36,861 nt of DNA. It comes from a virus. Its lineage: Duplodnaviria > Caudoviricetes. Position 1 is the first letter of the stretch. Each line of letters starts with the position of its first letter. The notes beneath the pieces are model-generated. The model saw nothing but the letters and a program-made list of their open reading frames with translations, ran no database searches and was not told where the DNA came from. This document shows, piece by piece, positions 3,401-33,181 of the stretch. A program made the position numbers and the translations under genes. The stretch lies in the IMG/VR virus record IMGVR_UViG_3300030376_003776, positions 1-36,861 of that record, one strand, 5' to 3'.

Positions 3401-6153
3401 CACGACGCCTTATGGCAGGTGGCGAACGAGCTACTGCTTCTTACAAAGCCGGTTTGGACATGATGTCCGAAGCTGACTATCTGAAGAAGCTAGCTGACGA
3501 AGGAAACGCTAAAGCTGCAAAGGCCCGCAATGCGTTTGAAATGGCCGACGATCTTCTAGAAGAAGCTGGATTCGGCAAGATCAATATTGGCGGTCAGGCA
3601 TTCCGGTCTGGCTTTGGTGACGACCCACGATTTATTGAACAGATTCAACGTGAGGTATCTGCAAACAACTGGGCGCAGTCTGTTCTTCGTGGTGCTCAAA
3701 AGTCAGCAAAACGAGAAATGGACTCGCTGAGCTACAAGGTTACCGGCGTTCTGGAATACACAGATCGCGCAACACGCCGCAAGTTTTTTGATGACCGATG
3801 GACTGAAACCATTGCACGATTTAGCTCTGCAAGCGGCACCGACGAGTTCTTCAACATTGTTTGGAACAGCAGCCAAACCGTGCAAACCCGCAGCGAAAAA
3901 CTTGCAACACTTCTTAAAAACGATGAAGCATTGTTCGACAGCATCGTGGCAGACAAGATGTACCACTTTGCCGACGACGTTGACTACAACACCATCTCAG
4001 AATTTATCGTCCGAGAATACGAAAACATTCTTCCATCTGGACAATTTGCTGACCTCCGTACCGACATCCGAAGCGGTGTCGAAGTCAAATGGCAGCAAGT
4101 CGAACAACGACTCTACGACGGCGCTACCGACCCCAAAATTGCCGAAGTTAACTTCAAAAAGAACATGGAGTTGATGCAGGAAATTCATCCGCAATTTGGA
4201 CGAGTGCTGCATCCCGAAACAGTCGCCAGCCCTAACCGTGTAAAAAACAGGATTGACGGTTTCTTTGAAGACATGTTCCGCATGTTCGGCACCCTGCCTT
4301 CAGACGAACTAGCACGATTCCCGTTCTACAAGAGCGTTTACGACGGCGAACTCCGTCGCCGAACCATCCCGCTTGTTGACGAAGACGGATTCCTTCGTAT
4401 TTCGCAAAACAAGATGAACGACCTAGAACGAGAAGCACGAGAATACGCCACCCAACGCACCCGTGAAGTCCTTTACGACCTGAACGAACAAACCCGCATG
4501 GGTGAAGTAATCGGCAACGCCTCGCCCTTCTTCAATGCTTGGCAAGAAGTCTTGGGACGCTGGGGCGGCTTTGCAGTCGATAACCCCATGTTTGTTGCCA
4601 AAGTCGGCCAACTCTACCGACAGCCTTGGGAAGCCGAATTCCTCGGACTCACCCAAGTCGAAGTTGGCGAAGAAGGAAGCGAAGATACTTACATTGTCTG
4701 GCGTCCTCTAGGCGACGCCTACGACGAAGAAGGCAACCCCACCAGCGTCTTCAACGCCATGCCCGACAAACTCAAAGACCTGTTCTTCCCAGCAGCAATC
4801 CGAGATGGCAACAACCCTCTCCGATTCTCCAAGAACGGTTTCAACATGATTTCGCAAGGCACACCGGGCTTCGGCCCGCTTATCACCGTGCCTGTGCGAG
4901 AAACACTAATTACAAACCCCGAGTTGGAAAACACTCTCGGCTTTATGTTCCCCTTCGGACACCCACACGGCGGATTTCTTAGCCGTCTGGGCCAAAGCCT
5001 TGCACCAGCATGGGCCAAAAACGTCAACAACCTCCTCACAGATACGCACAGCAAAGAAGTCATGGTTAATCGCATGTTCCGCGATTTGACTATTCAGCTT
5101 GCAGAAGCTGGCGACCCATTGGATTGGAACGACGAACTGGCCGTTATGGAAGTTTTGGAAGAAGCAGAGAAGCGAACCCAAAACTTCTTTGTGTTCCGTG
5201 TCGCTGCTGGCCTTTTCTCTCCTACTTCTACGACAGTTTTGAGTCCTTACGAGCCTCTGGTCCAGAAATATCGGGAATTGGAAAAGGAATACGACGTTCG
5301 GGAAGCCCAAATGCGGTTCTTGGACGAATATGGGACTGATTTCTTTGCTTTGACAGGCCGCATGTCACAGTTGAACGACGGTGTGCGTGCAACTGTCGAA
5401 AACGAAGAGCTTTACCGTCAAAACCAAGAGCTAATCCAAGCCCACCCAGCTATTGGAGCCTGGGTTTCAGGCAGTATCGGCCCTGTAGACGAAAACTACG
5501 TCTTCTCACAGGTCGTTTACAACCGTCAGTTCAACACACCAACCGGTCCTGGCTCTGACATCACCCGTCGTGACGTAAAATCCCCAGTTGAGTATGTTGA
5601 AGACACACAAATCGCTCAAGGTTGGATGGAATACTCCGCTATGAACGATCAAGTCCGAAATATGCAGGATCAGGCAGAAAACGTTGGCCTGTCAGCGTCG
5701 CTAAACGCCAAACACAATCAGCGTATTGCCGAATTGAAGAGCAAAGTTATTGACGAAATTAGCGCCAAGTACCCTGCATGGCGCAAAGAATTTGACGACT
5801 TTGGTTCATCAAACCAGCGCATGATTGACGTTTACGACGGTGTTGCGGCTGCTTTGAAGTACGAAAACATTGTGGTACGACCGTCTACTCCGCATTTGAT
5901 GGAGTTCCTGTCGCTCAGAGTTACTGTTCAAGAGATGCTAGAGGCTCGTAAAGCACGAGGTGGCAGCAACAACATTGAAGCTGGCGACAACGAAGACATC
6001 AAAGTTTTCTGGGAAGAAACCAAGGACGACATTGGTGCTCGCCCTGACTTTTCTCCTCTTTACGACAGGTATTTCGATAGAGATAGACTGTTGCCGCAGA
6101 CATTTATCAACGCTGAAGATTTCCCGTTGTCTGGTATGCCGAGGTACGCGTAA
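409..6153 (+). CDS. Giant internal virion / DNA ejection protein (1914 aa)
   Basis: Size, helical Ala/Gly/Glu-rich composition, coupled within virion operon; no polymerase motifs seen. Confidence 0.6.
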   Translation: MLGFAGNIWNGTTDVFEGLGSFGADVVRAAGELGSGDVAGAADVIVNSVQEDLMAKSLQGLFGPEGVGGTIIGALPQPIRQGGKYVIDPVFGVINWGLEELVDRPLGTGLTLLNVGIKDTGALFDLSTYAKAYAINDERTAGQALMAAAYLIDPFDQEDFTGLQSKPIFNLISGTVDFALEFADPTIYAGAVAVKAARGAAVAGTVSSTGKVTGTFGRRFANETRSSRLSVAPDANYVFGKGMGVRRATIAGRGRTAGIEGQKALPKIMQPLVATSEQVGRRRRVAESFIDERAVNFVNSQRFINLNNAVQQGATASERARNAKVIMGRSARHMSDRDIARWAAGETTEARALSMRVMLGDSAAHYEAIRIAGQIDDLLNNARWGEVDNYRKLAMTVGEDGVVNNVFRARDGQGKFIQPLPEDEILAMSKQYDELVGSVDWTLVHHMDEALREAMPKQLVIDEATGAYRVSDAVEATLRSVDTSVTHKAIEAMLKDIGELTEAGYTKPHSVFGNASRIRGMPNGSRLNELSRFHLKRLKETDESIAITSIVSKNPFTDADTVIQFVTERTPHSRIYFHDSQSTIQVERVMRDAARVVTPDGKRLIEEDAALRIVEDYETARAAGNIAEAQNIFLTEVRKLSNKTDNMFAGWFGDQVGPGRRGIAYERHILDEWELAMDEITDPALRKETVVGLSDENGKVTRSALIDESKEGTTHVANIRLSPKQLEQTAVLPRFDIVQKNFDRAVRRQSDVRADRIRAKAADIGTSGLKGLRKGTDEPMKYWRAGVLLTPKWPMRITIEEQLRMGSQLGAATTAMNLFKGVGDLRRAYGFFNFPNDKLLSDIDMITNAMRSTLGESVETGRVLKIDDALKAQMDEWGQVKKMPDDVKAERVRLQQQKKTLMKVDDLSAIEMMELLGTEGFQKIVDRLIREKVLTRRDLRRTQGNSALKAITVGMLFANPFVGGLYGFVSYGRKLKRMNQAGQRQAATNVAGAMRSEARRLMAGGERATASYKAGLDMMSEADYLKKLADEGNAKAAKARNAFEMADDLLEEAGFGKINIGGQAFRSGFGDDPRFIEQIQREVSANNWAQSVLRGAQKSAKREMDSLSYKVTGVLEYTDRATRRKFFDDRWTETIARFSSASGTDEFFNIVWNSSQTVQTRSEKLATLLKNDEALFDSIVADKMYHFADDVDYNTISEFIVREYENILPSGQFADLRTDIRSGVEVKWQQVEQRLYDGATDPKIAEVNFKKNMELMQEIHPQFGRVLHPETVASPNRVKNRIDGFFEDMFRMFGTLPSDELARFPFYKSVYDGELRRRTIPLVDEDGFLRISQNKMNDLEREAREYATQRTREVLYDLNEQTRMGEVIGNASPFFNAWQEVLGRWGGFAVDNPMFVAKVGQLYRQPWEAEFLGLTQVEVGEEGSEDTYIVWRPLGDAYDEEGNPTSVFNAMPDKLKDLFFPAAIRDGNNPLRFSKNGFNMISQGTPGFGPLITVPVRETLITNPELENTLGFMFPFGHPHGGFLSRLGQSLAPAWAKNVNNLLTDTHSKEVMVNRMFRDLTIQLAEAGDPLDWNDELAVMEVLEEAEKRTQNFFVFRVAAGLFSPTSTTVLSPYEPLVQKYRELEKEYDVREAQMRFLDEYGTDFFALTGRMSQLNDGVRATVENEELYRQNQELIQAHPAIGAWVSGSIGPVDENYVFSQVVYNRQFNTPTGPGSDITRRDVKSPVEYVEDTQIAQGWMEYSAMNDQVRNMQDQAENVGLSASLNAKHNQRIAELKSKVIDEISAKYPAWRKEFDDFGSSNQRMIDVYDGVAAALKYENIVVRPSTPHLMEFLSLRVTVQEMLEARKARGGSNNIEAGDNEDIKVFWEETKDDIGARPDFSPLYDRYFDRDRLLPQTFINAEDFPLSGMPRYA

Positions 6154-6935
6154 TGGCTGAAGAAGAAAACGCACCAATGCCAATTGAAACAATCGAACAG
6201 ACGATTGCTTCAGGTTACTCGTGGGCACAAGCAGCTAGCGACGTTGCAGGTAACCCGTTTGTCTTTGATGACCCGGTTCTTGGCTTTACCGAGTTTGAAG
6301 ACGTTATGGACATTGATGATCCAGGCGACGCTACTTACTCTACTGTTGCTAGCGCTGGTGCTGTCCCAATTCTTCAAAGCGACATTATTAATGCGTTGCC
6401 AAACGAAATGGACTCCGACGCACAAAGTATCCTGGCAATGGAAATGTTCTTAAACGTTGACTCTGCTTACGGAGACATCAATCAGGTTTTTGAAGACGAC
6501 GGTGCTGTCAACCAAGAAACGTTTATGAAGGCTGTCGAAACCACGCTGGCCTTAGCTGCAAAAGCTGGCCCGATGGGATACGGGACTACAACGAAGTATT
6601 TGAATATTTTGACAAGTGCAGGTGGCGCGTCTGCGGGCGAGCTAAACCAGCGGTTCCAAGAAGAACAGTCAAAGAGTTCTGGAATGTTTCCAGGGCTTGT
6701 GTTGAACCGTGTTGTCGATAGCGGGTTTGCAAATGTGCTTGGGCGTACTGCGTCTAAGCGTGAACAGCAGGAGTTTGCTGAGCTTGTGTTGGAGCTTGGC
6801 GATTCGATTAAGGGCGTAGAACATCTGGGTTTGGAGGCTGAAGAGTTTGCTCGCGAAGAGAATCCTCAGGAAGCACAGATGATGGATTACCGTAGTGCTG
6901 CTGACCGCATTATGAATGTGATGGGATTGGCCTAA
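6153..6935 (+). CDS. Putative internal virion protein (260 aa, acidic)
   Basis: TAATG-coupled on both sides within the ejection-protein block. Confidence 0.5.
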   Translation: MAEEENAPMPIETIEQTIASGYSWAQAASDVAGNPFVFDDPVLGFTEFEDVMDIDDPGDATYSTVASAGAVPILQSDIINALPNEMDSDAQSILAMEMFLNVDSAYGDINQVFEDDGAVNQETFMKAVETTLALAAKAGPMGYGTTTKYLNILTSAGGASAGELNQRFQEEQSKSSGMFPGLVLNRVVDSGFANVLGRTASKREQQEFAELVLELGDSIKGVEHLGLEAEEFAREENPQEAQMMDYRSAADRIMNVMGLA

Positions 6936-21029: not shown

Positions 21030-21045
21030 TGATAATTTTGTGGGA
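21030..21045 (+). promoter_or_regulatory. Possible extended -10 promoter giving a leaderless transcript
   Basis: TG-A-TAATTT, 6 nt, then ATG 21045; no SD sequence. Confidence 0.35.
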
Positions 21046-22292
21046 TGCAATGGCGTAGAATGAGCAAAGCGTTGCTCGTTTTTTTCTATGTAGCAGCCTG
21101 GTTTGCACCCGCTGCAACCGCACTCGAAAGCGTTTCGCTCAGTGCAGACACGCCATACTTGGACTACGACATAACTTTAGACGGCGAAACGTTGCTGCAT
21201 GTCACATTCGACAGCAACACTGCTTGCCCCTTAGATTTCGCAACAACTATTGATCCTTGGCTGCGCCTAATTGATTCAGAAGGCAATATCGTGGCCGACG
21301 ATGACGACGGAAATCACAACGAACAAGACAACTGTTATGGGTCCAAGCTCCACCTTACTCCCGAGGCAGGAACTTATGTCCTACGATTTAGAACGTACCA
21401 AGAACAATCTGGAATTGATATTCCAGACGGCTCAGGAACAGTCACATGGTCAACCGACGGATACTCCCCACCAACAACGACGACTACGACCACAACGTCA
21501 TCTACTACTACGACGACGACTACAACGACGACTACGACTACTACCGCAGCACCCACTACGACGACGACTACGACAACGACGACAACGACGATCCCAGTAA
21601 CTACGACGACGGAGGCACCGCCATCTACCACTACGACCCCACCATCAACGACTACTCAGGCGCCCCCAACGACGACGACGACAACTACTTCGTCCACTTT
21701 GCCGCCCACCACGACCACTACGTTGCCACCGACGACAACGACCACGACGACGCTACCGCCGACGACTACGCTGCCACCGACGACATCAACGTCAACATCT
21801 ACTACTACGAGTACGACGACAACGACGACGGTCCCGCCGACGACAACTACCACGCTGCCGCCTACGACGACCCAACCGCCTACGACGACTACGACGACCA
21901 CGTTGCCGCCTACCACGACAACCTTGCTGCCCCCAACGACAACTCTTCTACCTCAACTTGAAGAAATAACTCCAGAAGTTATTGAAGAACTTGAATACGA
22001 AGAACTGTCTGACGAACAGATTGAAGAAGTTGCAGAAGCAATTCAAGATGCAGATGACGAAGTAAAAGAAGCGTTTGAAGAAGAAGTCAACATTTTCGCT
22101 GGCTCAACTGAGCAATACATTCCTTCAGGCTCCACAGTGTCCGTCGAAGACCGACGCGCCATCATTGCTGTTCAAAGCGCCAGCATCGCAGTAGCAGCCG
22201 CTACACGGCCTCTCCCACCCGCTCCCGTTCCCACCACATCAACAACTTCAGGAGGACCTTCCACACCTACTACTCGGAGAAAAAATGATTAA
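21045..22292 (+). CDS. Secreted mucin-like protein: signal peptide, PPC-like beta domain, Thr/Pro stalk, acidic region
   Basis: Hydrophobic N-terminus with AxA site; DPWLRLIDSEG..DDDDG..GTYVL; long poly-Thr tract. Confidence 0.75.
   Translation: MQWRRMSKALLVFFYVAAWFAPAATALESVSLSADTPYLDYDITLDGETLLHVTFDSNTACPLDFATTIDPWLRLIDSEGNIVADDDDGNHNEQDNCYGSKLHLTPEAGTYVLRFRTYQEQSGIDIPDGSGTVTWSTDGYSPPTTTTTTTTSSTTTTTTTTTTTTTTAAPTTTTTTTTTTTTIPVTTTTEAPPSTTTTPPSTTTQAPPTTTTTTTSSTLPPTTTTTLPPTTTTTTTLPPTTTLPPTTSTSTSTTTSTTTTTTVPPTTTTTLPPTTTQPPTTTTTTTLPPTTTTLLPPTTTLLPQLEEITPEVIEELEYEELSDEQIEEVAEAIQDADDEVKEAFEEEVNIFAGSTEQYIPSGSTVSVEDRRAIIAVQSASIAVAAATRPLPPAPVPTTSTTSGGPSTPTTRRKND
21470..21950 (+). repeat. Low-complexity ACN-codon tract encoding poly-Thr/LPPTTT
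   Basis: Visible ACG/ACT/ACA/ACC runs. Confidence 0.9.
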
Positions 22293-28330: not shown

Positions 28331-28455
28331 AGGTCCACCTTTCATAGTTAAGAAAGCGCAGAGAAGGAGAGGGAGAAAGGAGTAAGAACCTCTCCTCCCC
28401 TGCACACCGGTTAGATATGGGTGATAGTGAACCACCCTTACCAAAAAATTGTGTA

Positions 28456-28963: not shown

Positions 28964-29244
28964 CACCACACCTCTTTGATATTGCGCACGTTAGCGGTCT
29001 GCTCAATGACATCGGCTGCGTCGTAATCGTTGACACGCTCACGGATGGCCTGATCAACAGCAAACGTCAACTGCTTTGCAAGCACAGCCATCTGCTGCAA
29101 GTCGTGACAGAACACAGTCAACTCTGCCCTGTCAATCTTGATCGTTACCCAATTCGTATCGAACGTTGGATAGTGTTTTGAATTAGCATCAACCGAAGTG
29201 CTTGACTCCTCGGTCATGTGTAGTGATGTGCTGAATAGAGCCAT
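28963..29244 (-). CDS. Hypothetical protein (93 aa)
   Basis: GAGG RBS; coupled. Confidence 0.7.
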   Translation of the reverse strand: MALFSTSLHMTEESSTSVDANSKHYPTFDTNWVTIKIDRAELTVFCHDLQQMAVLAKQLTFAVDQAIRERVNDYDAADVIEQTANVRNIKEVW

Positions 29245-29246
29245 GT

Positions 29247-29348
29247 CTATTCCTCTCTTTCTTTTTTGTAAGACAAATAATCATCAACCAGCAGCGCCAA
29301 CAGGAAGCAACTGGACATGATGAAGAACAGAAGCCAGAACGTATACAT
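29247..29348 (-). CDS. Small membrane peptide (33 aa, MYTFWLLFFIMSSCFLLALLV..; not in ORF track)
   Basis: GAGGT RBS; single hydrophobic helix; fills gap. Confidence 0.55.
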   Translation of the reverse strand: MYTFWLLFFIMSSCFLLALLVDDYLSYKKEREE

Positions 29349-29354
29349 CAGACC

Positions 29355-29531
29355 TCACTCATCAACATCGAACATACCGGTGAACAACGGACGCACACCG
29401 CTCGGTGCTGGAGCAGGGTTGTTTGTGTGAATGTCATAGTGACAGTAGGTACAAATATCCTCCATACCCCACACATAGTGCTTATCCCACTCCTTGCCGC
29501 TGATTGGCAAGTTGCAATGGTCGCAAATCAT
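29355..29531 (-). CDS. Small zinc-binding protein (58 aa)
   Basis: MICDHC..CTYC; GAAGGG RBS. Confidence 0.6.
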   Translation of the reverse strand: MICDHCNLPISGKEWDKHYVWGMEDICTYCHYDIHTNNPAPAPSGVRPLFTGMFDVDE

Positions 29532-29651
29532 TTTTCTAATTCCCTTCTCTATGGTGATAGTGATCCCGGAACCGGGGGGGCCGGCCGGCGCATCACCGGC
29601 TACGGGCCTCACGCAGCAGCGCACCCCCGCGTTGCTGGCTGGTGCGGGACA

Positions 29652-29684
29652 CGAGAAAGCCCCGACCCGCTGGGGGCCGGGGCT
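29652..29684 (-). terminator. Intrinsic terminator of the 153-aa gene
   Basis: AGCCCCGGCCC-CCAGC-GGGTCGGGGCT then TTCTC, 7 nt after the stop. Confidence 0.65.
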
Positions 29685-29691
29685 GCTCGGG

Positions 29692-30153
29692 CTATCGGGC
29701 GTGGATGTCTTTGGTGAGGGACTTCCACTCGTCGTCATCCCGTGCGACGGTCGCCTCGTCGGTGCGCTGGCGGAACGGGAGCATCGCGAGGCGGAGCGGC
29801 TTCAGGAGGTTTCCTGCGGCGGCTCGGTTCGGAAGCTCTCGGAAGGCCACGACCCGCGTCTGCTCCTCGAACTGATCGGGGTCGAACGCGTCGGGGATGT
29901 TGACTCGGGCCGTCACGCCGAGGATTGCCTGGCTGCCGACCATGCTGAGGAAGTAGCCGTTGGTGTCCTTGACGCCGGGTTCGACGCTGCCGTGAGGCGG
30001 GACCTCCATGACCCAGGTGCCCGCCTGGCGGCCCTGCATCACCTTGCGGGCGATGCCGTCGCTGCCGTCCGGCAGGCTCACCATCCCCTCGTGGATTCGA
30101 TCCAGGGCGTCTGCGAGACGCTCCTCGGTTGACATGTTCACGATATCGGTCAT
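29692..30153 (-). CDS. Hypothetical protein (153 aa) encoded inside the left arm of the fold-back
   Basis: GAAAGGAG RBS, high-GC3 codons, downstream terminator; no family recognised. Confidence 0.8.
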   Translation of the reverse strand: MTDIVNMSTEERLADALDRIHEGMVSLPDGSDGIARKVMQGRQAGTWVMEVPPHGSVEPGVKDTNGYFLSMVGSQAILGVTARVNIPDAFDPDQFEEQTRVVAFRELPNRAAAGNLLKPLRLAMLPFRQRTDEATVARDDDEWKSLTKDIHAR

Positions 30154-30671
30154 CGTGTCTCCTTTCGTAGAGGGGGCCGCGCGGCCACGTCGAGCGTCGG
30201 GTCCCTCGACGGGACGCCGTGGCATCCGTCACATGGGCCGGTCGCGGATGAGGAGGAGGAGGTAGCCAATCGGCGGAACTGGCGACGACGCAAATCGGGT
30301 GGTGTGGCATACGTCACGCCGGGGCGACGGGCGGGGGGTCGAAGCGCCGGAACCAGAGCGCAGAGTCGTAACAAGCAAAAGTTTTTTGGGGACGTCCCAA
30401 CCCACGCCGAGGAACGAGGTGTGGTAAGGACGGGTCCAAAAAAGTTTTGTGCAGGGACGACGGCGCGATCTGGGCCGGTGCTACGATCCCCCCGACCGGC
30501 GACACGGTGTGATGGATGGCACGCCGCACGATTGGCGGCGGCGACAGGCCGACGATAGGCTGCCGACGACGACGAAGTAGCAGCCGGCGCATGTGATGGA
30601 TGGCATGGTGGCCCGTTGAGGGGCTCGACGCTCGACGTGGCAGGGTGGTCCCCTCTACGGAAGGGGGCACG

Positions 30672-31185
30672 AGGGCCGATATCGGGGACATGTCAGCCGA
30701 GGTGCGGCTCGCAGACGACCGGGATCTAATCCACCCCCCTCTCTTCTCTTTTATCTTTCATTTCTCGTGATAGTGGGCGCCCAACAGAGGGGATGGTGTG
30801 ACTGCGGGACGGTAGCGGCGGCAGCGACCGTGAGGGGATGCAGGGCAGACAGGTGGGCGGCTGGGGCTTGGAGGTTCTGCGTCACGGTAGTGGCGGACCC
30901 GGCGTCGAGGACGCCGACGGCTGCTTCCTCGGCGTGGTCGGTAGTCAGGCGGTCATCGTCGTGACGGCCAGAGGCAACGTCACCGTCGTGTTCGACACCG
31001 AGCAGGTCGAGGGGCAGGCGTGGGGCGTGGACTGCCGGGAGATTACGGACCGGGCCGACGCAGGGAGCCTCATGGAGCCGCTCCGTCTCGTGGTGCTCAC
31101 GGTCCGCCTGTGCACCGTCGAGGTGACAGGCGCGCGGGATGGCGTCGAGGGGATGTTCCTCACCGAAGACAGCCTCGCCCGATAG
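30672..31185 (+). pseudogene. Non-coding inverted mimic copy of the 153-aa gene
   Basis: About 80% identical; ATG>AGG, SD AGGAG>AGGGG, in-frame TGA at codon 26, 52-nt insertion, mostly non-synonymous changes. Confidence 0.85.
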
Positions 31186-31561
31186 TCCGACAGCCACGGT
31201 CCCCATCGGGTCGGGGCACTCGGGTCACGCAGGGTTTATCGCGCCCCCCCAAGAAAGCAACGACGTGATAGTGACGCTTAAACTTGAGAGCAGGCGCGAT
31301 AAACCCAAGCCAGCAACGCGGAAATGAAACAGTCCCCCACCCCAACCCTCCGGAAGTCTTGCTTTGTTTGACCGGTGCCGGTGGTTTAAGAAGGGTGGGG
31401 GGCATTCTTCTAGCGCTGCTGCGTGCTGCCTGTAGCCGGGGATGTGCCGTGGCCCCCCCGGTATAAATAATGCTAATCAGTGTGTTGGTAGTTTTGGTTT
31501 GTTGGGTTGCCTGTTGTTTGGTTTGGGGTCGGGTCACCCCTGGGTCCCTCCGCCAGTTTAG

Positions 31562-31730
31562 GTTGGTCGCCTCTAGCAAGTAGCTTTGGTTGCTAGGCCG
31601 CATTCCCGGTGGGACATGCGGCTGCTGCCCTTCTGACGGGCGATCTCTCGGCGGCTGACCGAGGCACAACAGTTGACCGTGTTGTGTGCGGTGTGCCACG
31701 ATTATGGCGTGGCTGTGAGGCTGCGTCAAC
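31562..31730 (+). ncRNA. Multi-branch structured element (six hairpins plus closing stem)
   Basis: Six back-to-back hairpins seen by eye; RNA versus ssDNA role unknown. Confidence 0.5.
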
Positions 31731-31753
31731 TAATAAGGATATAGGTGTTGGCT

Positions 31754-31942
31754 ATGGCTGACTTGATGGTTGATGTTTTTCGGAGGATTGGTGTGCAGAA
31801 GCCCGGTGATTGGGTTGCGAAGTATCAGGCTCCAGATTCGGAGTGGGATGATGAGGAAGTGGATTGGGGATCAGATTCGGATGTACCGGTTGATCCTGCG
31901 TGCGACTTGGAAAGCCCGGAGGAGTGCGAGTCATGCCAGTAG
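31754..31942 (+). CDS. Small acidic protein ending ACDLESPEECESCQ (62 aa)
   Basis: AGGTG RBS; C-terminal CxxC. Confidence 0.65.
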   Translation: MADLMVDVFRRIGVQKPGDWVAKYQAPDSEWDDEEVDWGSDSDVPVDPACDLESPEECESCQ

Positions 31943-32010
31943 GCAGTGTCCTGTTGCTGATCCTCATTTGTGTATTTGTGATCTTTGTGATTGTAAAGGA
32001 TGGTAAGTGA
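31933..32010 (+). CDS. Possible 25-aa membrane peptide MPVGSVLLLILICVFVIFVIVKDGK
   Basis: GGAG upstream; TGATG coupling to next gene. Confidence 0.35.
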   Translation: MPVGSVLLLILICVFVIFVIVKDGK

Positions 32011-32192
32011 TGGCTGCTAGCGCGAAACATTATTTTCGAGATGGTCGGATTCATAACGGCAAGTTTCATAAGATGTCGAATGGCAAGTTGCACACTGGTG
32101 CTAGTCATACGGCGTCAAGTAAACCGTTGTTTCATTACGGCCAGTTGAGTAAGAAGGCTCAGGCAAAGGTCCGGGCAGATCGGAAGAAGTGA
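32010..32192 (+). CDS. Small basic His-rich protein (60 aa)
   Basis: HKMSNGKLHTGASHT; coupled. Confidence 0.7.
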   Translation: MAASAKHYFRDGRIHNGKFHKMSNGKLHTGASHTASSKPLFHYGQLSKKAQAKVRADRKK

Positions 32193-32392
32193 TGGCTGCT
32201 AAGAAGGTTGCGAAGAAGAAAGCGAAGTCTCGGGTTAACGAGGCTGGTAATTACACGAAGCCTACGATGCGTAAGAATCTGTTTAATCAGATTAAGGCTG
32301 GTAGCAAGGGCGGTAAGCCTGGGCAGTGGTCGGCGCGTAAGGCGCAGATGTTGGCGAAGCAGTACAAGGCTAAGGGTGGCGGTTACAAGTAA
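32192..32392 (+). CDS. Small basic protein (resembles DUF5872 N-terminal part)
   Basis: NYTKPTMRK..KGGKPGQWSARKAQ..YKAKGGGY. Confidence 0.75.
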   Translation: MAAKKVAKKKAKSRVNEAGNYTKPTMRKNLFNQIKAGSKGGKPGQWSARKAQMLAKQYKAKGGGYK

Positions 32393-32637
32393 TGGCTGCG
32401 AAGAAGAAGTCGCAGAAGTCTTTGGATCGTTGGTCGAAGCAGAAGTGGCGTACTCCGTCTGGTAAGCCGTCTGGTAAGACTGGTGAGGTGTATGCGCCTG
32501 CTGCGACAATTAAGAAGTTGAAATCTACGCCTGCTGGTCGTAAGAAGTTAGCGGCGGCTAACAAGAAGAAGCGTGAGGCTACTCGTAAGGGTAAGCAGCA
32601 TGCTCGTCATGGTTTGCATAAGGGAAAGAAGCGCTGA
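32392..32637 (+). CDS. Small basic protein (resembles DUF5872 C-terminal part)
   Basis: SQKSLDRWSKQKWRT.SGKPS..TGE.Y.P. Confidence 0.75.
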   Translation: MAAKKKSQKSLDRWSKQKWRTPSGKPSGKTGEVYAPAATIKKLKSTPAGRKKLAAANKKKREATRKGKQHARHGLHKGKKR

Positions 32638-32930
32638 TGGCTGAGAAGAAGAAAGACCCGAAGCTGGCTCGTGCTGGGGTGTCGGGTTATAACAAGCCAA
32701 AGCGGACACCAAATCATCCGAAAAAGTCGCATGTTGTTGTGGCCCGTAATAAAGCGGGTACAACGAAGTTGATTCGTTTTGGGCAGCAGGGTGTGCGTGG
32801 TGCTGGTAAGAACCCGAAGTCGGCTAAGGATAAGGCTCGTAAGAAGTCGTACTATGCACGGCATAATGCTCAGGACAGCAAGCCGGATATTCTTTCGGCG
32901 CGGTACTGGTCGCACAAGGTGAAGTGGTAA
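32637..32930 (+). CDS. Small basic phage protein (97 aa)
   Basis: GYNKPKRTPNHPKKSHVV..IRFGQQG..ARH..ARYWS.KVKW. Confidence 0.75.
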   Translation: MAEKKKDPKLARAGVSGYNKPKRTPNHPKKSHVVVARNKAGTTKLIRFGQQGVRGAGKNPKSAKDKARKKSYYARHNAQDSKPDILSARYWSHKVKW

Positions 32931-33181
32931 TGGCTCCTCGTAGGTCTAAGTCGCCTGGTAAGACTGCTAAGGCGATGAACAAGAATCCGGCGCAGCGCAA
33001 GAAGCACAATGCGCGCAATGCGAAGTATCACGACACGCCAAAGCGTCGTGCGTATCGTGCCGAGTTGGCGCGTGGCCGTCGTGCCAAGGGCATGATGGGC
33101 AAGGGCGGTCCTGATCTTCATCACAGCAAAAACGGTAAGTTGGTAAAGAAGTCGGTCAAAACTAACCGAGGCCGCAAATAA
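32930..33181 (+). CDS. Small basic protein, possibly HNH-derived
   Basis: G.G.DLHH..G..NRGR; directly before terminase. Confidence 0.6.
   Translation: MAPRRSKSPGKTAKAMNKNPAQRKKHNARNAKYHDTPKRRAYRAELARGRRAKGMMGKGGPDLHHSKNGKLVKKSVKTNRGRK

Follow-up and report, generated by a model that had tools for sequence, protein, structure and literature searches.

The closest described systems are the Frpo/ssi elements of the F and IncI1 plasmids, strand-specific imperfect duplexes that, as described in PMC11541004 and PMC12672017, serve host RNA polymerase and drive the first-entering genes of a leading region transferred as a single strand. In these accounts Frpo is an intergenic promoter hairpin, searched for in regions of 50-350 bp, and it solves the initiation step only (PMC11541004, PMC12672017). 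GNA-capped DNA hairpins that act as phage single-strand signals are described for the early promoters of N4 and for the G4/ssiA origin mini-hairpins, with stems of a few base pairs closed by C-G (PMC13037366).

Here we describe a fold-back in a tailed phage that resembles these systems in part. The window, by which we mean the whole stretch of DNA analysed, is an entire virus record of 36,861 bases, and its rod of 790 pairs takes in leader, coding sequence and terminator and opposes them with a decoy copy, whereas the longest ungapped hairpin segment in the 12-kb F leading region is 32 bp. Unlike the single-strand-transferred plasmids, the window belongs to a terminase phage without known single-strand transfer, and no relaxase or transfer family, such as would mark a Frpo leading region, was found among 34 scanned window proteins. 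A GAA apex is shared with the N4 and G4/ssiA hairpins and is present in four of four rods, but it reads G-GAA-C, so that the C-G closing pair of the GCGNAGC mini-hairpin (cGNAg) is absent; the apex is closed by G-C, flanked by tandem G.A and carried on a kilobase rod, and no virion RNA polymerase was identified in the window phage. In HDV, obelisk and viroid-like rods an ORF on one side likewise faces non-coding complement, with the folded strand as template; the window rod differs in lying in a dsDNA phage, in not being closed, in having no ribozyme match and in having G.A as frequent as G.T. One strand of an integron attC site also folds better than the other, through G.T/A.C asymmetry, but these are far shorter recombination substrates, and no integrase was found among the 34 scanned proteins. 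The sequence-only reading of this DNA knew of no equivalent, and we found no gene-length mirror in a phage described in the main texts of open-access papers, the supplements of which could list such elements. As proposed here, the element would work like Frpo, and it is larger in kind.

Genome and setting of the element

The reading frame that follows terL runs past the end of the window and closes 13 codons into its start, which fits a complete circular map. The genome encodes a terminase, a major capsid protein, an endolysin, a PD-(D/E)XK nuclease, a Rad52-like annealing protein, SSB and WhiB, and because WhiB is among these the host is probably actinobacterial. Assigning a host from MAGs was tried and rejected, as the three terL matches fell in three phyla on short contigs, which we read as binning noise. 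The sequencing runs that contain window DNA are marine or estuarine, with no RNA runs among those listed. Elsewhere in the genome, positions 21045-22292, adjoining the endolysin, encode a protein of 415 aa that has an extended tract of Thr/Pro-rich repeats and matches no family, and five small Lys/Arg-rich genes (phrog_17747, 14910, 7595, 6437) lie ahead of terL at 32007-33181, their products being candidate DNA-binding core proteins.

The element is an island of 66% GC in a genome of roughly 49% GC, with leftward early genes on one side and the rightward terL module on the other. All four rods described here, those of the window and of loci L008, L063 and L073, lie between leftward early genes and the terminase, a junction that we infer to be the genome end. 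Streptomyces podoviruses are among the nearest cultured terL matches; in Immanuel3, which has a terminal repeat of 275 bp, terL lies 679 nt from the left end, the genes at the right end point leftward and neither end has a rod. By likeness to Immanuel3 the window rod would lie near the right genome end, a placement by analogy only, because the terL likeness to the Streptomyces phages is weak (29% identity over 28% of the protein). At a right end the + strand has its 3' end, and 5'-3' resection would leave the + strand.

Organization of the fold-back

The sequence-only reading drew two arms complementary from 29571 and 31462 inward to an apex, a geometry that is borne out, with the apex at 30408-30419 (Table 1). 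It placed a ribosome-binding site, the 153-aa ORF and a terminator on the left arm; the hairpin at 29659-29685 is visible there, but our scanner did not flag a terminator. The right arm was correctly called a dead mimic. Because its start is lost, a stop lies in frame and the ORF/mimic mismatches fall mostly at codon positions 1 and 2 (33/40/18 at positions 1/2/3, or 73 of 91 at the first two), the mimic is free of protein selection. The mimic of the window has a pyrimidine-rich, G-poor insertion (Table 1), and those of L008, L063 and L073 carry C-rich, G-poor ones. The apex CGAGGAACGAGG is predicted to form a GAA triloop plus tandem G.A, and four tandem GA/AG steps are found in the left inner arm at 30250-30260.

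TGTGA-N6-CCAC sites occur in the window at 30310-30326 and 30220-30236 and in L008 at 5503-5518 (−). They resemble a CRP/GlxR box, and in the rod they pair symmetrically as TGGCA/TGGCA around a G.G.

Table 1. Features of the fold-back and its flanks in window coordinates
Feature	Position	Strand	Remarks
GATAGTG heptamer in GTGATAGTG	29554..29562	+	strand-biased family heptamer at left edge of GC-rich island; TATGGT before it, 29551-29556
Left half of closing stem	29571..29622	+	pairs with 31413-31462
Terminator-like hairpin of gene	29659..29685	-	followed by TTTC on − strand; mirrored at 31191-31217; seen in sequence
153-aa ORF	29692..30153	-	+ strand is the template; unnamed phage family
Left inner arm, template side of leader and promoter region	30154..30407	+	sense strand without TAnnnT
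Ribosome-binding site AAAGGAG	30159..30165	-	read in sequence
Apex 12-mer CGAGGAACGAGG	30408..30419	+	C-GA-G-GAA-C-GA-G; common to L008, L063 and L073
Extended -10-like box TGcTACGAT	30479..30487	+	mimic only; -11 A is an A.A mismatch in the rod
-10-like box TAGGCT	30556..30561	+	mimic only; -11 A is an A.A mismatch
TGGCATGGT box	30601..30609	+	68-72 nt before start; conserved in mimics of window, L008 and L063
Dead mimic of ORF sense strand	30672..31185	+	start lost, in-frame stop
52-nt pyrimidine-rich, G-poor insertion	30735..30786	+	loops out of rod; holds GATAGTG at 30769
Outer loop, largely unpaired	31218..31412	+	GATAGTG at 31267; other letters in X4
Right half of closing stem	31413..31462	+	pairs with 29571-29622
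Right flank, conserved in close clade (12 other terL loci)	31438..31571	+	candidate end/late-promoter region

The 153-aa gene and its product

Homologues of the 153-aa ORF range from 90% down to about 30% identity. The protein had no match among Pfam, PHROG or PDB sequences, and its Atlas result was blank. A first structural model (pLDDT 37) was unusable; the second (pLDDT 75) had no Foldseek match at E<=0.001 and a best VIA Z of 3.7, which does not imply a new fold. Identity with PsiB (PF06290), an Atlas lead at 0.77 for the L063 protein, was rejected (hhalign of A4 against F PsiB, 0.8%), and PsiB was not among the matches listed in fold searches of the protein. P0007-P0009 were set aside as repeat-protein noise. 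Four database 'proteins' (P0003, P0006, P0029, P0030) are translations of the mimic arms of relatives, and annotators should be aware that such arms have already been deposited under that label.

Mismatches, spacing and strand folding

The 462 pairs of the ORF comprise 371 Watson-Crick and 91 mismatched pairs, the latter made up of 44 G.T, 33 G.A, 9 T.T, 3 G.G and 2 C.T, with no A.C, C.C or A.A; an earlier count by hand (about 91) was identical class by class. By template base the ORF mismatches fall on T 37, G 35, A 17 and C 2 times, C being mismatched at 2 of 145 positions. The pair of copies was also considered as a DGR template/variable repeat and rejected, given its inverted arrangement, this distribution of mismatches and the lack of an RT among the scanned proteins. 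Across the 790 aligned pairs of the rod, G.T exceeds A.C by 69 to 4 (p 2e-16), G.A exceeds C.T by 66 to 6 (p 7e-14) and G.G exceeds C.C by 10 to 0, which is also significant; T.T and A.A, at 9 and 3, do not differ significantly. Mismatches avoid being neighbours (3 adjacent against 17.7 expected; 0 of 20,000 random placements as low), which agrees with the fairly even spacing noted before, and the longest perfect run is not unusual (19 against 22.5 expected, p 0.31).

When 951 nt were folded as DNA, the + strand reached -397.5 kcal/mol (z -24.9) and the − strand -270 (z -11.1); for the whole element the values are -854 and -626. The sequence-only reading thus went too far in holding that the − strand cannot fold, since it does so, if much less well than the + strand. 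Its view that selection keeps the + strand foldable is supported by the covariation and by the recurrence of the design with other genes. The strand difference may, as it also suggested, suppress cruciforms.

Independent sequences and covariation

Runs X1-X4 were compared with the window as contigs. An 8.8-kb contig of X1, possibly the source of the window itself, spans the element with 1 difference, and both arms are present in X3 and X4, from two other studies; for these reasons the element is not an assembly artefact, and the arrangement stands as first described. Between 29930 and 30950, 29 of the 32 letters at which X4 differs from the window were used. The 28 paired substitutions yield 24 changed pairs (13 Watson-Crick, 7 G.T, 2 G.A, 1 G.G and 1 A.A), with a destabilising outcome in 1 against 12.5 expected (0/20,000), and 4 pairs are changed on both sides against 0.43 expected (p 0.0004). 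These double-sided changes lie in the leader, while changes in the ORF are mostly on the mimic side. X3 has at least 5 double-sided Watson-Crick swaps, counted in 40 of its 248 rows. In X3 and X4 the apex region differs from that of the window, with 576 letters for 239.

Recurrence in other phages

The same gene-plus-mirror design recurs with different genes in related and unrelated phages. L008, whose terL matches that of the window at 89%, carries a 146-aa homologue of the window gene (36%) with its own mimic; the two pair with loops in place of many mismatches and with a weaker bias among single mismatches (G.T 16 to A.C 6, G.A 15 to C.T 6). Between its gene and mimic arms, at 5527-6503, lies an ungapped 424-nt core of (GAG)n against (GAC)n, in which 124 of 125 tandem G.A steps are 5'-GA/3'-AG, all 85 one-base linkers are Watson-Crick (70 G-C, 15 C-G) and irregular units are matched across the arms (score 317 against <=129 in 300 unit shuffles). 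A mirror or triplex reading of this core is ruled out by the linkers, all 85 of which are complementary, not identical. GGA/AGG zipper-like motifs are seen near the L008 apex, and the core can be regarded as a natural non-canonical helix.

L063 has 87-89% DNA identity to the window in both flanks and a distant 138-aa gene inside (hhalign against the window gene 69%, E 4.5e-5). Its leader and first codons pair with a right-hand mimic and the body of the gene with a left-hand mimic, with single bulges and G.A, covering the whole template through another geometry than that of the window; its strand folding gap is small (-502 vs -461). L073, found in a search with the apex motif common to the window, L008 and L063, has a terL and a gene without similarity to those of the window, in the same layout and with a rod around the same 12-mer. 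The L073 gene arm holds G.T and A.C at 42 to 4, G.A and C.T at 14 to 3 and G.G and C.C at 12 to 0. Three near-identical 19-nt loops (GATGCGAGCTTCGAGTGTC) bulge from its mimic arm at 3540-3700, each of which can form an apex-like tandem-G.A mini-hairpin. Each of the four rods folds from the strand that serves as template for the gene, with a mirror reaching from leader to stop.

Among relatives of the window the fold-back is present in L008 and L063, but of the five close relatives in which the region is present, four (L002, L003, L010, L011) possess a GC-rich early island and lack a long fold-back; rods are likewise absent from terL loci further removed. Because most close relatives do without it, the rod is dispensable in this family. 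Local folding of 150 nt in the rod-less relatives gave no clear strand bias. A rod search of 56 terL loci found one positive (L008), and among 5 DUF932 loci L063 was positive, three were without the region and one was the contig of L008. A strict apex-pattern search returned 11 loci, 2 of them known, with 1 new rod among the other 9; a loose one returned 119 loci, of which 105 were testable and 1 was positive (the contig of L073), by a test that missed the contig of L063 and is therefore insensitive where rods are bulged. When viral and metagenome contigs were scanned at the protein level, only the contig of L008 and a copy of the window were found; a GTDB protein scan found none, and a search of cultured phages gave no match.

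The early islands of rod-less relatives have features of their own. That of L010 (1950-4470) is saturated with CTCGAG palindromes, and that of L002 has many short GC palindromes, is closed by a 4217-4262/7558-7637 stem and has a GP88-family gene (PF17338; 4519-5538, −) as its innermost gene. At the right edge of the island, L003 (7678), L006 (790) and L011 (about 7250) have the apex 11-mer, or a hairpin of cGAAg plus tandem GA, directly after a GATAGTG-like motif.

The GATAGTG heptamer

GATAGTG/CACTATC is found in the window at 28423, 29169, 29556, 30769 and 31267, and also at many terL loci. Over 30 loci plus the window it is distributed between the strands as 56 vs 2 upstream of terL and 6 vs 4 downstream, frequently as closely spaced pairs and along the borders of the early island, whose left edge it marks in six phages; in the window rod it sits in loops. 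It is a candidate nick, priming or Chi-like site. A sigma-70 box was considered and rejected, as there is no partner -10 or -35 and a ribosome site lies downstream in 13 of 51 cases against a background of 23%. Hairpins beside the heptamer are not clearly enriched (8/56 vs 8%). As in the virion nick sites of tf/LUZ24, phiKMV and T5 described in PMC3517423, a short motif is confined to one strand. The CACTATCAC found here matches the tf/LUZ24 nick site TACTATGAC at 7 of 9 positions but departs from the consensus TACT/RTGMC, YCACTATC differing at positions 1 and 7, and for phage tf itself a CACTGTGAC variant is described as not nicked (PMC3517423). The window motif also differs from nick sites of the tf/LUZ24 type in being confined to the early region.

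Proposed mechanism

We propose, as on balance the probable reading, that the element is a whole-gene version of the plasmid Frpo promoter, in which promoter, gene and terminator are rebuilt as a duplex when the + strand is single-stranded. In the fold-back the + strand sets the template of an early gene against an inactive copy of the sense strand, and it likely works as single-stranded DNA that rebuilds a transcribable duplex, probably at whichever genome end is first to enter the cell. Host RNA polymerase would start in the inner arm of the fold and transcribe the left arm. During transcription the upstream duplex must reform, or else the RNA stays on the template (PMC5467207), and because release depends on this, the mimic, as a stand-in non-template strand, would allow the RNA to be released and not left hybridised. 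The G.T, G.A, G.G and T.T mismatches, together with bulges and loops, would keep the + strand fold stable, and would also stop recombination between the copies and leave the − strand mRNA open, while in duplex DNA the mimic would be kept silent by its C-rich insertions, G-poor tracts that perhaps serve as Rho-loading tracts or loops. The + strand might be exposed because the genome has a single-stranded end, because 5'-3' resection starts from the right-hand end, or because pieces of the − strand are lost; how it would come to be single-stranded is the least secure step of the mechanism. The original proposal was of a gene cassette or an origin folded from ssDNA, and the former fares better: 'origin' is the weaker term because the mirror extends over everything from promoter to terminator and has been built anew for genes that differ.

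The promoter evidence is uneven. Only two TAnnnT occur in the inner arm of the window, both in the mimic and each arising from one of three A.A mismatches. In L008 and L063 gene and mimic alike carry a TGnCAnnnT box, and L073 has TATGAT in the mimic and CATGAT and one TAnnnT on the gene side; the asymmetry is clear in the window only, is not clear-cut in the other three, and comes with no consistent -35.

Alternative explanations

A + strand RNA would also form a 1.9-kb rod, its left arm antisense to the mRNA, and could act as a masked antisense switch, a dsRNA decoy or an HDV-like polymerase template, a possibility that we consider unlikely. On the + strand a TAnnnT does immediately precede the rod (TATGGT at window 29551, TATCGT at L008 4819), position 29504 matches a + promoter weakly, no mismatch is commoner than G.T, mismatch counts correlate in rank with penalties alike for DNA and RNA (-0.74, -0.76), and with ViennaRNA the L008 GA core forms 175 cross-arm pairs under the RNA set and 0 under the DNA set. 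Yet the 206 isolated mismatches of the four elements include 52 G.A against 9 A.C and 16 C.T, an excess of single G.A that has no energetic reason in RNA: under DNA parameters G.A has a 1.8 kcal/mol advantage over C.A in every one of its 52 contexts, and under RNA parameters in none, as expected from the initial assignment of the mismatch code to DNA. The GAA triloop apex and the GGA/AGG motifs are also of DNA type, in that GNA-loop hairpins are described as much more stable as DNA than as RNA (PMC13037366) and PMC11014236 describes, for DNA, GGA/AGG zippers as well as the stacking of G on G between sheared G.A pairs. Rfam gave 0 matches at E<=1 in window 29000-32200 and, for 5 loci, 0 at gathering and no ribozyme. 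We judge the folded molecule quite probably to be DNA.

Such a DNA structure might instead serve replication, terminal-repeat copying or end protection, as an origin, priming site or nuclease block, with the gene mirrored merely as neighbouring sequence. This would suit the position at the early/late junction, the strand-biased GATAGTG in the rod loops, the rod-less relatives that keep the apex 11-mer or small hairpins beside that heptamer, and the description of mini-hairpins as marks of ssDNA priming sites (PMC13037366). We nonetheless hold it improbable, given a mirror that runs from leader to stop in all four rods, its two-arm rebuild in L063, the mirroring of the gene in L008 despite a long core of non-coding repeats, and the lack of clear hairpin enrichment by GATAGTG. 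A decaying inverted duplication under biased repair, in which NucS/EndoMS clears G.T, G.G and T.T from an occasional − strand hairpin and leaves its blind spots, seems very improbable. It fits a probably actinobacterial host (WhiB) and the reported cleavage by EndoMS of G/T, G/G and T/T, the classes missing from the − strand fold, but the enzyme is described as sparing the mismatches behind A:T-C:G transversions, which leaves G.A 66 vs C.T 6 unexplained (PMC6159521). The even spacing, the compensatory swaps, the 124 oriented tandem G.A steps and the shared apex need positive selection. Inverted repeats are, finally, a known artefact of amplified libraries, and one locus, L057, ends 40 nt past the apex, both of which would speak for an assembly chimera or fold-back artefact; this is already refuted, as the arms differ at 20% of positions, in a pattern, and independent runs and other phages hold both arms.

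The reading of the element as a gene that works from single-stranded DNA is favoured by the mismatch code and spacing, the covariation, the recurrence in L008, L063 and L073, the DNA energies, the TAnnnT in the mimic, the Frpo precedent and the position. It is weakened by the folding of the − strand, the small gap in L063, the equal rank correlations, the result of the ViennaRNA DNA set on the L008 core, the promoter asymmetry that is clear in the window only and the rod-less relatives, and also because boxes in the mimic would exist in duplex DNA too. Terminase phages normally deliver duplex DNA, which counts against a single-strand reading, and GA mini-hairpins show no + strand bias family-wide (11 vs 15).

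Implications

More broadly, and with slightly more doubt than confidence, we suggest that some tailed dsDNA phages may deliver or expose their leading end single-stranded with self-assembling 'one-strand genes', each with a decoy written in a G.A/G.T/G.G code and a shared apex, reaching from promoter to terminator and transcribable before its complement exists. The device would have been rebuilt for different genes in unrelated phages and would include a naturally occurring helix of 400 bp in which tandem G.A pairs predominate. If true, this would mean an unrecognised single-stranded phase in the tailed-phage life cycle and a new mode of gene expression, from a strand with its own stand-in partner. 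The signature of gene, biased mirror and apex motif would make it possible to search for the genes that phages need first, probably for counter-defence, and cores of the L008 type offer a natural test of long G.A-rich DNA helices. The element may also give a candidate handle on an old question, the purpose of one-strand motifs and nicks in virion DNA.
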